Made by a program: the position numbers and the translations under genes
The notes under the pieces: model-generated
Seen by the model: only the letters and a program-made list of their open reading frames with translations
Told to the model about the DNA's origin: nothing
Database searches by the model: none
In this document: positions 7,437 to 12,085 of the stretch, piece after piece
How the letters are laid out: every line of letters begins with the position of its first letter
How positions within the stretch are numbered: position 1 is the stretch's first letter
DNA from: a virus
Lineage: Duplodnaviria > Heunggongvirae > Uroviricota > Caudoviricetes
IMG/VR virus record: IMGVR_UViG_2609460125_000004
DNA: 15,059 nt
Direction: 5' to 3' (one strand)

Positions 7437-8079
7437 TGGCAGCAAATACCGAAATATTTGGGTAGTTGGCGATCTGCACGGATGCTACACGAACCTGATG
7501 AAAAAACTGGAGACGATAGGATTCGACACCAAAAAAGACCTGCTTATCTCGGTTGGCGATTTGGTCGATCGCGGTACAGAGAACGTTGAATGCCTGGAAT
7601 TAATCACATTCCACTGGTTCAGAGCTGTACGTGGAAACCATGAGCAAATGATGATTGATGGCTTATCAGAGCGCGGAAACGTCAATCACTGGCTGCTTAA
7701 TGGCGGTGGCTGGTTCTTTAATCTCGATTACGACAAAGAAATTCTGGCTAAAGCTCTTGCCCATAAAGCAGATGAACTTCCGTTAATCATCGAACTGGTG
7801 AGTAAAGATAAAAAATATGTCATCTGCCACGCCGATTATCCTTGTGACGAATACGAGTTTGGAAAGCCAGTTGATCATCAGCAGGTAATCTGGAACCGCG
7901 AACGAATCAGCAACTCACAAGACGGGATCGTGAAAGAAATCAAAGGCGCGGACACGTTCATCTTTGGTCATACGCCAGCAGTGAAACCACTCAAGTTTGC
8001 CAACCAGATGTATATCGATACCGGCGCAGTGTTCTGCGGAAACCTCACATTGATTCAGGTACAGGGAGAAGGCGCATGA
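7414..8079 (+). CDS. ninI: Ser/Thr protein phosphatase (NinI, lambda PPase)
   Basis: GDLHG, GDLVDRG and GNHE metallophosphatase motifs; [25 protein letters not shown]... matches lambda NinI; 221 aa from ATG 7414 after GGAG. Confidence 0.95.
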
Positions 8080-8699
8080 GACTCGAAAGCGTAGCTAAAT
8101 TTCATTCGCCAAAAAGCCCGATGATGAGCGACTCACCACGGGCTACGGCTTCTGACTCTCTTTCCGGTACTGATGTGATGGCTGCTATGGGGATGGCGCA
8201 ATCACAAGCCGGATTCGGAATGGCTGCATTCTGCGGTAAGCATGAACTCAGCCAGAACGACAAACAAAAGGCTATCAACTATCTGATGCAATTTGCACAC
8301 AAGGTATCGGGGAAATACCGTGGTGTGGCAAAGCTTGAAGGAAATACTAAGGCAAAGGTACTGCAAGTGCTCGCAACATTCGCTTATGCGGATTATTGCC
8401 GTAGTGCCGCGACGCCGGGGGCAAGATGCAGAGATTGCCACGGTACAGGCCGCGCGGTTGATATAGCAAAAACAGAGCAGTGGGGGAGAGTTGTTGAGAA
8501 AGAGTGCGGAAGATGCAAAGGTGTCGGCTATTCAAGGATGCCAGCAAGCGCCGCATATCGCGCTGTAACGATGCTAATCCCAAACCTTACTCAACCCACC
8601 TGGTCACGCACTGTTAAGCCGCTGTATGACGCTCTGGTGGTGCAATGCCACAAGGAAGAGTCAATCGCAGACAATATCTTGAATGCGGTCACACGTTAG
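8076..8699 (+). CDS. Q: Q late-gene antiterminator
   Basis: 207-aa product [31 protein letters not shown]... with a zinc-finger Cys cluster (CRDCHGTG...CGRCKG) matches lambda Q; start overlaps the ninI stop. Confidence 0.93.
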
Positions 8700-8741
8700 C
8701 AGCATGATTGCCACGGATGGCAACATATTAACGGCATGATA

Positions 8742-8770
8742 TTGACTTTTTGAATAAAGTTGGGTAAATT
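8742..8770 (+). promoter_or_regulatory. Late promoter PR' (-35 TTGACT 8742-8747, -10 TAAATT 8765-8770) with the overlapping Q-utilisation region
   Basis: 17-bp spacing, immediately downstream of Q; sequence closely matches the lambda PR' region as recalled. Confidence 0.8.
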
Positions 8771-8777
8771 TGACCCA

Positions 8778-8971
8778 ACGATGGGTTAATTCGCTCGTTG
8801 TGGTAGTGAGATAAAAAGAGGCGGCGCTTACTACCGATTCCGCCTAGTTGGTCACTTCGACGTATCGTCTGGAACTCCAACCATCGCAGGCTGAGAGGTC
8901 TGCAAAATGCAATCCCGAAACAGTTCGCAGGTAATAGTTAGAGCCTGCATAACGGTTTCGGGATTTTTTAT
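8778..8971 (+). ncRNA. 6S RNA-like short PR' transcript (about 194 nt) ending at tR'
   Basis: Distance from the predicted start (about 7 nt after the -10) to the end of the tR' U-tract is about 194 nt, the size of lambda 6S RNA. Confidence 0.6.
8912..8971 (+). terminator. tR' intrinsic terminator
   Basis: Long hairpin ATCCCGAAAC...GTTTCGGGAT (8912-8921 paired with 8955-8964) followed by TTTTTTAT. Confidence 0.85.
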
Positions 8972-9367
8972 ATCTGTGCAACAGGTAAGAGCATTCTCCC
9001 TTATGGGGCTTGGCTTAAATGCACCGAGTGCTCTTATCGTTGTGCTGAATTAAGCGAATGCCGGAAGCAGAACCGGATCACCAAATGCGTACAGGCGTCA
9101 TCGCCGCCCAGCAACAGCACAACCTAAACTGAGCCGTAGCCACTGGCTATCCTGAATTCATCAGTGATAGTTACGCTGCGGCCTTCTACACATGACCTTC
9201 GTGAAAGCGGGTGGCAGGAGGTTGCGCTAACAACCTCATGCCGTTTTGCCCGTGCATATCGGTCACGAACAAATCTGATTACTAAACACAGTAGCCTGGA
9301 TTTGTTCTATCAGTAACCGACCTTATTCCTAATTAAATAGAGCAAATCCCCTTATTGGGGGTAAGAC

Positions 9368-9691
9368 ATGAAGATGCCAGAAAAACATGACCTGTTAGCC
9401 GCCATTCTCGCGGCAAAGGAACAAGGCATCGGGGCAATCCTTGCGTTTGCAATGGCGTACCTTCGCGGCAGATATAATGGCGGTGCGTTTACAAAAACAG
9501 TAATCGACGCAACGATGTGCGCCATTATCGCCTGGTTCATTCGTGACCTTCTCGACTTCGCCGGACTAAGTAGCAATCTCGCTTATATAACGAGCGTGTT
9601 CATCGGCTACATCGGTACTGACTCGATTGGTTCGCTTATCAAACGCTTCGCTGCTAAAAAAGCCGGAGTAGAAGATGGTGGAAATCAATAA
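9368..9691 (+). CDS. S: Holin/antiholin S (class I, dual start Met1-Lys2-Met3)
   Basis: [64 protein letters not shown]... matches lambda S; three transmembrane segments; ATGAAGATG dual-start motif present. Confidence 0.95.
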
Positions 9692-10151
9692 TCAACGTAA
9701 GGCGTTCCTCGATATGCTGGCGTGGTCAGAGGGGACTGATAACGGACGTCAGAAAACCAGAAATCATGGTTATGACGTCATTGTAGGCGGAGAGCTATTC
9801 ACTGATTACTCAGATCACCCTCGCAAACTTGTCACGCTAAACCCCAAACTCAAATCAACAGCTGCAGGCCGTTACCAGCTTCTTTCCCGTTGGTGGGATG
9901 CCTATCGTAAGCAGCTTGGCCTGAAAGATTTCTCTCCGAAAAGCCAGGACGCTGTGGCACTGCAACAGATTAAAGAGCGTGGCGCTTTACCGATGATTGA
10001 TCGCGGTGATATCCGTCAGGCTATCGACCGTTGCAGCAATATCTGGGCTTCACTGCCGGGCGCTGGTTATGGTCAGTTCGAGCATAAGGCTGACAACCTG
10101 ATTGCAAAATTCAAAGAAGCAGGCGGAACGGTCAGAGAGATTGAGGTATGA
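9675..10151 (+). CDS. R: Endolysin R (lytic transglycosylase)
   Basis: [35 protein letters not shown]... matches lambda R, including the catalytic Glu in WSEGTD; 158 aa. Confidence 0.95.
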
Positions 10152-10615
10152 GCAGAGTAACCGCGATTATCTCCGCTCTGGTTATCTGCATCATCGTCTG
10201 CCTGTCATGGGCTGTTAATCATTACCGTGATAACGCCATTACCTACAAAGCCCAGCGCGACAAAAATGCCAGAGAACTGAAGCTGGCGAACGCGGCAATT
10301 ACTGACATGCAGATGCGTCAGCGTGATGTTGCTGCGCTCGATGCAAAATACACGAAGGAGTTGGCTAATGCGAAAGCTGAAAATGATGCTCTTCGGCGCA
10401 AGCTTGATAATGGTGGCAGGGTGCTCGTCAAAGGAAAATGCCCTGTGCCATCCTCAGCCGAAACCTCCAGCGCCTCCGGCATGGGCAATGATGCCACCGT
10501 CGAACTCTCTCCAGTTGCTGGACGAAACGTTCTCAGTATCAGATCTGGAATCATCAGCGACCAAACATCACTGAGAACGCTTCAGGAATACATCAACACG
10601 CAGTGCCTGAAATGA
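10148..10615 (+). CDS. Rz: Rz spanin inner-membrane subunit (i-spanin); lambda-like N-terminal half, divergent C-terminal half
   Basis: N-terminal transmembrane segment and coiled-coil region ([72 protein letters not shown]) match lambda Rz; the sequence after about residue 80 does not. Confidence 0.9.
10368..10574 (+). CDS. Rz1: Rz1 outer-membrane lipoprotein spanin (o-spanin), embedded in the +1 frame of Rz
   Basis: [21 protein letters not shown]... has a signal peptide with lipobox (VAGC) and a proline-rich mature region ([16 protein letters not shown]); AGGAG upstream; fully nested in Rz as in lambda. Confidence 0.75.
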
Positions 10616-10623
10616 ACAATCAT

Positions 10624-10647
10624 AGCCTCGTAATAGCGAGGCTTTTT
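10624..10647 (+). terminator. Intrinsic terminator after Rz
   Basis: Hairpin AGCCTCG-TAATAG-CGAGGCT followed by TTTT. Confidence 0.7.
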
Positions 10648-10665
10648 ACTAACCGAGGGTAAATA

Positions 10666-10854
10666 ATGTCATCTCCAATCATGAAGTATTTCGCTTATCA
10701 ACACCTCCCTGCGCATCTGCAGGAAGTAAGTAAGCCAATCGGTGAACTTGCGACACTGATGGATGAATCACTGCCGGACAGTGCTGAAAAGTCAGCAGGT
10801 CTCCGCAAGCTGCTCGAAGCTAAAGATGCGCTGGTGCGAGCAAAGCTGGGGTAA
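10666..10854 (+). CDS. Hypothetical small protein (62 aa)
   Basis: Good ribosome-binding site (GAGGG, then ATG); helical-looking sequence MSSPIMKYFAYQHLPAHLQEVSKPIGELATLMDESLPDSAEKSAGLRKLLEAKDALVRAKLG; no family recognised. Confidence 0.55.
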   Translation: MSSPIMKYFAYQHLPAHLQEVSKPIGELATLMDESLPDSAEKSAGLRKLLEAKDALVRAKLG

Positions 10855-11149
10855 GTCATTACAAAGCCTATCTACGGGTGGGCTTGATAATGAAACCGGA
10901 ATTTATTCTGGGTAACCAGTTACGGCAGTACCGCGAAACAACCCAAGCCAGAAAGTGGGGAAATAACACTGGCAGCCACTGAAAGATGAACCTCCAGCCT
11001 TATGGCAAAAAAGATTCTTTGTGGTGGCGGACTGATGGAAAGACATCGGTTATTGCAGAGGCCATTCAATGAGTGGTCTCGACAATGGCTTATACCCTAC
11101 ACGGGATATCTTAACTGATATCCCTTTTAACGGATAAACGGAGCCAACA

Positions 11150-11392
11150 ATGGCAGAGATTATTCCCATGACTGAAGAACAGAAATTCAAGTTAGAAATT
11201 TACCGACTGCTATCTAAGAACAATTCAGCGGCAGAGGAAGCTTTTGCATTCATTGGCGCTGACCAGCTGAAACTGGAATTGTTCAAGTTGCACTACAACG
11301 ATGGCGGTGCAAATCCAGACTTCACATCTCGCACTATCGAAGCGGTGCGTAAATCGAAGGAAGCGTTAGACCTGTTCACCACCGGAGCATGA
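11150..11392 (+). CDS. Hypothetical small protein (80 aa)
   Basis: GGAG 8 nt upstream of the ATG; coding-like composition; no family recognised. Confidence 0.55.
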   Translation: MAEIIPMTEEQKFKLEIYRLLSKNNSAAEEAFAFIGADQLKLELFKLHYNDGGANPDFTSRTIEAVRKSKEALDLFTTGA

Positions 11393-11393
11393 T

Positions 11394-11573
11394 GTGAGCC
11401 GCGTAATCAATTTGGGTAAGGAGAAGAGATTCCCAATTACTCAAGAGCTATACGAGCGGCTGGAAAGCGTCATCCATGATTACGATGGTGAAATCAGTTT
11501 ATGCGAGGCGATTGGTACACTCGAATTGCTGAAGCAGTCACTGATTGAAGGCGCGAAAGAGTCCTTAACCTGA
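11394..11573 (+). CDS. Hypothetical small protein (59 aa, GTG start), translationally coupled to the 80-aa ORF; absent from the ORF track
   Basis: GGAG 6 nt upstream of GTG 11394; open frame to TGA 11571-11573; helical-looking product. Confidence 0.35.
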   Translation: MSRVINLGKEKRFPITQELYERLESVIHDYDGEISLCEAIGTLELLKQSLIEGAKESLT

Positions 11574-11596
11574 AATAACGATTAAGTGAGATGAAT

Positions 11597-12085
11597 ATGG
11601 CAGCACCAAAGGGCAACCGATTTTGGGAGGCCCGCAGTAGTCATGGGCGAAATCCTAAATTCGAATCGCCTGAGGCGCTGTGGGCTGCTTGTTGTGAATA
11701 CTTCGAGTGGGCTGATGATAACCCGCTATGGGAGGGTAAGGTATTTTCATATCAGGGAGAAATAATTAAGGCTAATGTCCCTAAGATGCGAGCCATGACT
11801 ATTTCAGGATTGTGTACCTTCCTTGATATCACCAGGCAAACATGGGGAACCTTCCGGTCAATGGAAGGTTTTTCTGACGTCACATCACGAGCGGAAGACA
11901 TCATCTACGACCAGAAATTCTCTGGCGCAGCCGCTGACCTTCTCAACGCTAACATCATCGCCCGTGATTTGGGCCTCAAAGAGCAGTCGCAAGTTGAAGA
12001 CGTGACACCTGATAAGGGAGATCGCGATAAGCGACGCTCTCGTATCAAGGAGCTATTCAACCGTGGAACTGGACGCGATTCTTGA
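11597..12085 (+). CDS. Terminase small subunit (P22 gp3-like)
   Basis: 162-aa product [47 protein letters not shown]... recalled as the P22 gene 3 protein (same length); directly precedes and overlaps the large terminase. Confidence 0.85.

Follow-up and report, generated by a model that had tools for sequence, protein, structure and literature searches.

Accessory genes on a conserved backbone between the lysis and packaging genes of a tailed-phage sequence, with a widespread family of 62-residue proteins

Locus

The IMG/VR virus record IMGVR_UViG_2609460125_000004 (Caudoviricetes; one strand, 15,059 nt, this entire stretch being referred to as the window) was analysed over an interval of about 1 kb, 10616–11596, that leads from the lysis to the packaging genes. 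Three small genes lie in it, all on the plus strand: ORF62 (62 aa, 10666–10854), carried by a mobile 270-bp cassette (10624–10895); orf80 (11150–11392); and orf59c (11394–11573). The DNA between ORF62 and orf80, 10855–11149, is non-coding and is the best conserved part of the interval. Phage records matching the interval numbered 206, mostly P22-like phages of Salmonella, Escherichia and Shigella, and no record covered 80% of it; 10854–11601 is colinear with phage Kapi1. Judged from the sequence, the interval is rather probably an accessory junction; the late operon that holds it would be that of a P22-like prophage (Lederbergvirus type) from E. coli or Shigella.

A first-pass annotation, made from the letters alone, had described this interval; its observations were partly confirmed and its interpretation was partly supported. 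The 62-residue open reading frame (ORF) with a good ribosome-binding site (GAGG, 7 nt before the ATG) and the coupled 80- and 59-residue pair (orf80 stop and orf59c GTG start 1 nt apart; GGAG 6 nt before the GTG) were both found as described. Its statement that nothing here belongs to the P22 core was wrong for orf80, orf59c and most of the non-coding DNA, as follows from the matches to P22: 10922–11109 is 93% identical to the P22 DNA directly after the rha stop codon, and 11136–11803 is 87% identical to P22 orf80, orf59c and gene 3. Most of the interval's non-coding DNA is thus also present in P22, where the pair agrees with that of the window in genes, order, lengths (80 and 59 aa) and coupling, at about 87% DNA identity. 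The two proteins do match conserved P22-like late genes, of which the function is non-structural and unassigned.

Between the two matches P22 and BTP1 carry a segment of about 630 bp on the opposite strand, the pid locus, which the window lacks. Lit. data: pid at P22 40357–40998, described as a moron; related phages without the insert (PS34) or with a different one (Cenens et al. 2013, PMC3573128). Since P22 and BTP1 carry pid where the window does not, and relatives have been described as insert-free, the window has the empty form of the pid site; the pid locus (PMC3573128; Wolput et al. 2022, PMC8835761) belongs to the same interval, and the window is colinear with P22 to its left and to its right. 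The pid locus is divergently transcribed, with a weak promoter and a terminator of its own, whereas ORF62 occupies another slot, is read on the late strand and has no detected promoter of its own.

The ORF62 cassette

The cassette opens with an intrinsic-terminator-like hairpin and U-tract (10624–10648, plus strand; 8-bp stem with 5 G-C pairs, hairpin 10624–10643, then TTTTT; −13.1 kcal/mol, z-score −2.7), and only 22 nt separate this terminator from the ORF62 ATG. Homology with other prophages carrying the cassette begins at 10622–10625, at the hairpin, and ends at 10892–10895, after a second stem-loop; the comparison places the hairpin at the 5' edge of the mobile ORF62 cassette and not in the Rz module. 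Eight enterobacterial prophage contexts carry a 97%-identical protein; four different lysis cassettes and three different terminase types were seen across them. In all eight the cassette keeps the same edges, with the lysis genes immediately before it and the packaging genes after it. It was present in one of 119 P22-like viral contigs (fetched by an exact 20-mer from inside the core described below, Rz, orf80 and terminase being located in each) and in five of 5,426 complete E. coli genomes. By these comparisons, ORF62 is a gene that moves between phages on its own, and ORF62 as well as orf59c behave as optional cargo, which bears out the accessory nature proposed for them earlier.

Lambdoid morons were defined by Hendrix and colleagues, with lambda bor and lom as examples; the classical ones have their own promoter and are expressed in the lysogen. 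Like them, the ORF62 cassette is a short segment that some phages have and others lack between conserved flanks, has hairpins at its ends and travels among lambdoid phages that are otherwise unrelated; unlike the classical ones, it has a terminator in front and no detected promoter. In a scan limited to sigma-70 consensus sites, no promoter-like site was found on either strand of 10400–11800.

The position on the late strand 3' of the Q gene, the absence of a promoter-like site in that scan and the terminator that opens the cassette together point to Q-antiterminated late expression: ORF62, orf80 and orf59c would most likely be made only from Q-antiterminated late transcripts and not in the lysogen. 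For orf80 and orf59c, RNA-seq of the BTP1 lysogen also bears on this reading; their homologues were at 4–50 transcripts per million (TPM), like Rz and rha, and pid at 41–1110 TPM (PMC7067206 supplement), values that fit late-operon genes and not cargo expressed in lysogeny.

In Citrobacter phage phiNP (OR565852.1) an ORF62 homologue at 24605–24784 stands under a feature named 'endopeptidase Rz', a label that is probably an annotation error.

The ORF62 family and its predicted structure

ORF62 matched phrog_1761 (E = 3.3e-33) and phrog_5120 (E = 3e-22) over its full length, all invariant columns being present. Grouped at 90% identity the family comprises 2,186 clusters, and at 50% it has 4,166 representatives; no curated model for it exists in Pfam or NCBIfam, no match was obtained with PDB sequences or with the defence-system models of PADLOC, and a literature search with the ORF62 motif and the PHROG numbers found no paper in the collection searched. 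Profile and structure searches, which the first-pass annotation had suggested for the three proteins, thus gave families (DUF2560 for orf80, phrog_3546 for orf59c and phrog_1761/phrog_5120 for ORF62) and no match to a solved structure.

Homologues were found in 323 phage records; the hosts, with 36–82% amino-acid identity of the homologues, include Vibrio, Erwinia (jumbo phages), Acinetobacter (including a T4-like phage), roseobacters (N4-like phages), Mycobacterium, Gordonia, Brevibacterium, Microcystis and Myxococcus. When species-representative genomes were scanned, 396 loci were obtained, of which the best 80 have 59–97% identity and come from Alpha-, Beta- and Gammaproteobacteria, Acidobacteriota, Chloroflexota, Bacillota, Planctomycetota, Actinomycetota, Cyanobacteria, Verrucomicrobiota, Deinococcota, Nitrospira, Desulfobacterota and one Peregrinibacteria metagenome-assembled genome; some of these 80 genomes are metagenome assemblies, and single phylum assignments are to be read with caution. 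Taken together, phages and genomes from at least 12 bacterial phyla carry the family. No recurrent neighbour gene was found in the 80 genomes or in four diverse phages.

The AlphaFold2 model of ORF62 (predicted local distance difference test, pLDDT, 97.1) is a three-helix mini-protein with helices 4–9, 16–35 and 40–61. Essentially invariant in the family are F9, H13, L14, A29, E41, R47, L49, L50, K53, D54 and R58, and P15 is fixed alongside F9, H13 and L14; helix 3 is conserved on all faces, nearly every residue being fixed (G45, R47, K48, L49, L50, E51, A52, K53, D54, V57, R58). ORF62 conforms to the family motif F-x-[YFW]-x-H-L-P ... G-L-R-K-L-L-E-A-K-D-[CA]-x-V-R. Its residue 55 is Ala; Cys stands there in 87% of the representatives (KD[C/A]xVR).

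The domain occurs alone, in tandem duplicates, or fused to WDGH (PF25311), RyR (PF02026), crAss001_48-like (PF21825) or HTH_3 domains (tandem proteins P0125, P0131 and P0143; further P0207, P0171, P0239 and P0264). Apart from HTH_3, the fusion partners are themselves families of unknown function; for the WDGH fusion no PDB relative was found, and the literature on WDGH yielded nothing useful. In the Brevibacterium phages AGM11, AGM14, 2C and 4T (about 24518–24754) the ORF62 homologues overlap features labelled 'repeated sequence in phage genome'; at these places the alignments are weaker (43% identity) and extend further.

Possible function of ORF62

A stand-alone protein that crosses between unrelated phages and remains near-constant across phyla most plausibly binds something common to its hosts. 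It is tentatively proposed that ORF62 would form oligomers and bind a host factor or ligand that all these hosts share, with a part in counter-defence or in the take-over of the host at a late stage of infection. As the leading guess, counter-defence is held with reserve, because the same slot holds DUF2829 in other prophages. In a bolder and rather doubtful form of the proposal, ORF62 would found an undescribed phage family of about 60 residues that neutralises a function common to most phyla; were this so, oligomeric binding of an immune signalling nucleotide or of another universal small molecule would be one possibility, and it would be explained why identity stays at 59–97% between enterobacterial prophages and genomes assigned to Actinomycetota, Cyanobacteria, Chloroflexota, Bacillota, Planctomycetota and other groups.

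Several observations weigh against the proposal. The case for counter-defence is drawn from distribution, conservation and neighbourhood; every link between ORF62 and a characterised family failed (Pfam, NCBIfam, PDB, Foldseek, profile comparison, PADLOC); the domain is fused to a helix-turn-helix (HTH) domain in at least one protein, and would also fit a plain oligomerisation module; and the gene lies in early or middle regions of lytic phages, so late expression is not a trait of the family.

A specific form of counter-defence, a sponge of the Acb2/Tad1 type for the cyclic-nucleotide immune signals of systems such as CBASS or Thoeris, is improbable. It was raised by a weak Pfam match of residues 26–59 to Acb2_Tad1_hairpin (PF24729; E = 0.12, 13.1 bits), similarly weak matches being given by four of 40 family members, and it would suit the shape of the model (a short N-terminal helix and two long ones), the aromatic F9, Y11 and H13 and the basic R47, K48, K53 and R58 conserved across phyla, and the DUF2829 cargo found in the same slot elsewhere. 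Acb2/Tad1 sponges are, like ORF62, small, mostly helical products of stand-alone accessory genes, with a very wide host range and conserved aromatic and basic residues. However, 13.1 bits is far below the Pfam gathering threshold of 27 bits for PF24729, on which T4 Vs.4, taken as the Acb2 reference, scored 71.4 bits (E = 7e-20); hhalign of the ORF62 family profile with T4 Vs.4 gave a probability of 0.3% over 15 columns; a profile search of all PDB sequences gave no Acb2/Tad1 chain at E ≤ 10; and Foldseek gave no PDB match for ORF62 at E ≤ 0.001. Membership of PF24729 was rejected on these four results. There is neither a detectable sequence or profile relation nor a match in the fold search, and the lengths differ (62 aa as against 88 aa for T4 Vs.4). 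This was the sole family hint, and it failed all tests; no evidence was obtained for the inhibitor or regulator role that had been suggested for the three small proteins.

Also unlikely, though less so than a sponge of that type, is a helper of the phage itself, regulatory or structural (an oligomerisation module, a lysis-timing factor or a packaging accessory), with no action against the host. The constant position between lysis and packaging genes on the late strand in enterobacterial prophages, the natural tandem duplications, and one relative in which an HTH_3 protein bears the ORF62 domain at its C-terminus, an arrangement like that of a repressor dimerisation domain, would all be in keeping with it. 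Against these stand the unrelated contexts of the gene in T4-like, N4-like, mycobacterial and Vibrio phages, where no conserved partner gene accompanies it, and the at least three unrelated terminase types that occur with it; moreover, the cassette was found in five of the 5,426 E. coli genomes as against 707 with the backbone hairpin, from which it follows that ORF62 is dispensable for such late operons.

Binding of something common to the hosts therefore stays the favoured, and still tentative, proposal for ORF62. Of the small phage families seen here, this one, which has no name, ranks with the more widespread. Small, stand-alone, mobile, phylum-crossing proteins have repeatedly proved to be inhibitors of bacterial immunity, and ORF62 fits this profile; it is a worthwhile and inexpensive experimental target.

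Backbone and cargo slots

The remainder of the interval is a conserved backbone composed of a stem-loop (10856–10893), a core (10921–11047), a 22-codon upstream ORF (uORF) and orf80 (DUF2560). It is interrupted at no fewer than four positions that carry different cargo in related phages; in the 119 viral contigs the Rz–core and core–orf80 distances fall into discrete classes with exact junctions. The layout drawn from these comparisons is well supported.

Slot A, directly after Rz, is occupied in the window by the ORF62 cassette. The distance from Rz to the block ranges from 311 nt, with a small ORF of 48–50 aa alone, to more than 1,300 nt; cargo in annotated relatives comprises rha, a 173-aa ORF, DUF2829, KilA-N, an S1 peptidase and a GIY-YIG nuclease. 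The 48–50-aa ORF of the otherwise empty slot overlaps the end of Rz (L006, 804–956; L002, 748–891), is annotated with a predicted signal peptide in Kapi1 and is absent from the window. In several E. coli prophages the place of ORF62 is taken by a gene with a DUF2829 domain (e.g. L005, strain 90-9281, 1039–1518), a family that includes the Thoeris anti-defence protein Tad2; a Gp49-family gene is the inner-slot cargo in these DUF2829-carrying prophages.

Slot B1, at 11047/11049, is the commonest insertion point (17 loci with inserts of 389–657 bp, including a Gp49-family gene) and is empty in the window. A further insertion point at 11052/11071 receives a DUF551 gene, as in E. coli M6. Slot B2, at 11109/11136, holds the 630-bp pid insert in P22 and BTP1 only, homology with these phages breaking at 11109 and resuming at 11136; in the window it is empty, with 26 nt in place of 630 bp. 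Slot C, from orf80 to the small terminase gene, shows gaps of 17 or 38 nt (empty), 76–82 nt (a micro-ORF), about 200 nt (orf59c, as in the window) and 413–803 nt.

With many cargo genes after Rz and within the block (pid, DUF551, Gp49-family) and with pid at a known moron site (PMC3573128), the locus is an ordinary accessory-gene hotspot that has already been described, as the first-pass annotation had proposed. As a locus it adds little; the comparison shows that the known moron hotspot is resolved into four discrete slots on a conserved backbone, and that the backbone also occurs in HK97-like phages.

The non-coding block

The stretch 10855–11149, described earlier as non-coding, is indeed so, and is not featureless: it contains the stem-loop, the nearly invariant core and the 22-codon ORF. 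The stem-loop (10856–10893, plus strand; −22.7 kcal/mol, z-score −6.2; no U-tract) was matched in stability by none of 200 shuffled sequences. It lies directly 3' of the ORF62 stop codon and, in relatives, 3' of other cargo genes; 90 loci have it, with about ten different upstream sequences that each end 2–4 nt before it, and this hairpin part of the backbone is present in 707 of the 5,426 complete E. coli genomes. In the alignment 94% of the cells are paired, the stem changes being mostly CG to UG or UG to UA and the reverse; these keep pairing only in plus-strand RNA, so that they fit an RNA of that strand.

The core (10921–11047; 127 nt, non-coding) is identical in more than 97% of 119 distinct sequences at almost every position. 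In loci with empty inner slots the per-column identity is 0.93–1.0 over 10936–11135, 0.65–0.80 in orf80 and 0.3–0.4 in the stretch beyond it, which has several alternating alleles. Two HK97-like siphoviruses, HK106 and mEp235, have the block at 97% identity; in HK106 (L126, 861–2174) it stands between a GIY-YIG nuclease cargo gene and an HNH endonuclease gene, and orf80 is missing. Two candidates for what the core might encode were rejected. A hidden protein gene was considered, two minus-strand frames being open; no synonymous bias was seen in any of the six frames (synonymous to non-synonymous substitutions about 10:30 in all) and no ribosome-binding site was found. A structured RNA was also dismissed, the fold (z-scores −1.4 and −0.7) being no better than that of shuffled sequence.

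The check for a tRNA or small RNA that the first-pass annotation had put forward gave neither: ARAGORN found no tRNA or tmRNA gene in 10500–11700, and an Rfam covariance search of the same segment at E ≤ 10 gave a best E of 2.1, all matches lying far below the gathering scores (a partial match to Proteo-phage-1, for instance, had 16.8 bits against a threshold of 42).

The 22-codon uORF (11069–11137, plus strand; MSGLDNGLYPTRDILTDIPFNG; AGAGG 7 nt upstream) is the counterpart of annotated P22 orf25, whose C-terminus differs owing to the pid insertion inside it. As the C-terminus is replaced wherever pid is inserted, the uORF is probably not a conserved protein.

A cis function of the stem-loop is considered possible, though it is put forward with caution: it might act as a 3'-end, stability or processing element on the late mRNA for whichever cargo gene lies upstream. 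Two points tell against such a function of the conserved block. Compensatory double changes are missing from the stem-loop, and covariation in it stays within what shuffled controls give; some of the core's conservation stems from the choice of loci, all of which were fetched for sharing an exact 20-mer that lies in it. The least probable of the explanations weighed for the block is that 10856–11149 encodes a small RNA or another trans-acting product instead of a cis element of the late transcript. Its conservation above that of the flanking genes, the 97% identity common to phages with different packaging modules, the very stable stem-loop at its start with a hairpin and TTTT at its end, and the lack of a coding signature in any frame would suit a trans-acting product; the missing promoter-like site on either strand, the missing Rfam match and the core fold not above shuffled sequence speak against it, as does the fact that many phages have cargo at 11047 and 11109, where an insertion would cut one RNA in two. 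In BTP1, moreover, none of the non-coding RNA entries STnc6000–6030 seen in the expression table (371921–404727) lies between the end of rha (388963) and the start of pid (389225) (PMC7067206 supplement). Somewhat less improbable, and still doubtful, is a backbone with no function of its own, that is, a shared linker kept by the homologous recombination that shuffles the neighbouring cargo. The cargo boundaries are the exact edges of the conserved segments (10856, 10921, 11047 and 11136), lysis, cargo and packaging modules of different kinds, those of HK97-like phages among them, are joined by the same block, and the core has no structure, coding or promoter signal, all as a linker would have it; but neutral DNA would not remain more than 97% identical beside an orf80 diverged to 65–80%, and the changes in the stem-loop are mostly compatible with pairing. 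A cis element on the late mRNA is accordingly kept as the slightly preferred of these readings, and the conservation of the backbone poses a second, smaller question on how the late transcripts of lambdoid phages are organised.

The perfect 8-bp inverted repeat noted in the first-pass annotation exists, GGGATATC-N6-GATATCCC followed by TTTT; it is found at 11103–11124 and not at 11101–11122, includes slot B2, and is at chance level, perfect 8-nt inverted repeats with at most 12 nt between the arms numbering 42 in the 15-kb window. Three of 111 related loci have it in perfect form; in the rest the left arm is GGGATAAC, a 7/8 match, the repeat being perfect here because of the T at 11109. A role as operator, terminator or insertion target was rejected on its unremarkable frequency and its imperfection in nearly all relatives. 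The only insertion that uses it as a junction is pid, and the commoner insertion point is 11047; the palindrome is incidental, with no separate role.

orf80 and orf59c

orf80 (11150–11392, plus strand), the backbone gene at the P22 orf80 position, matched DUF2560 over the whole profile (PF10834; E = 5.5e-37, 126.3 bits against a threshold of 25 bits; profile 1–72 of 72). Its family has 74 clusters at 90% identity, all named ones being enterobacterial. The structural model has four helices (pLDDT 73.5, moderate confidence) and generic structural neighbours only, with no specific fold match. A literature search on DUF2560 gave nothing useful. orf59c (11394–11573, plus strand), optional cargo of slot C at the P22 orf59c position, matched phrog_3546 (E = 6e-42 over 1–59 of 59); its family has 61 clusters at 90% identity, is enterobacterial and has no Pfam family. 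By these clusters, both families are confined to enterobacterial phages. Neither protein gave a match in PDB sequences or NCBIfam, and with PADLOC only a 12.7-bit match of orf59c to JetB was obtained.

The position of the pair directly upstream of the small terminase gene, the translational coupling and the late-gene-like expression of the BTP1 homologues might suggest that orf80 and orf59c are accessory factors of DNA packaging. This is very improbable: P22 orf25 and orf80 are needed neither for lysogeny nor for lytic growth according to the Casjens laboratory (bioRxiv 10.1101/2023.08.15.553423); orf80 is absent from HK106 despite the same backbone; it is a pseudogene in E. coli M6; and orf59c occurs in only 20 of 72 orf80-carrying loci, equally often with either of two small-terminase types. 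On this equal presence a tie of orf59c to the type of small terminase was likewise discarded. The M6 homologue of orf80 (L004, NZ_CP010186.1, 1716–1958) has an internal stop; this is the closest prophage that carries ORF62.

Flanking genes

The plus strand of the window reads, in order, NinG (6622–7233), the Q antiterminator (8076–8699), a candidate late promoter, holin (9368–9691), Rz with Rz1, and the small and large terminase genes. On the left the interval is bordered by the Rz spanin gene, the end of the lysis cassette (10148–10615, plus strand; PF03245, E = 3e-32), with Rz1 embedded in it (10323–10574, plus strand; PF06085, E = 5e-20), and on the right by the small terminase gene of the P22 gp3 type (11591/11597–12085, plus strand; PF16677, E = 8.6e-31). 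The ORF in the endolysin position (9675–10151, plus strand; 158 aa) gave no Pfam family at E ≤ 0.001; in related prophages its homologues bear the annotation glycoside hydrolase family 24 or lysozyme RrrD. Directly 3' of the Q gene a promoter-like site, TTGACT-17-TAAATT (8742–8770), probably marks the late promoter region; a terminator-like hairpin on the minus strand (8759–8779) overlaps it.

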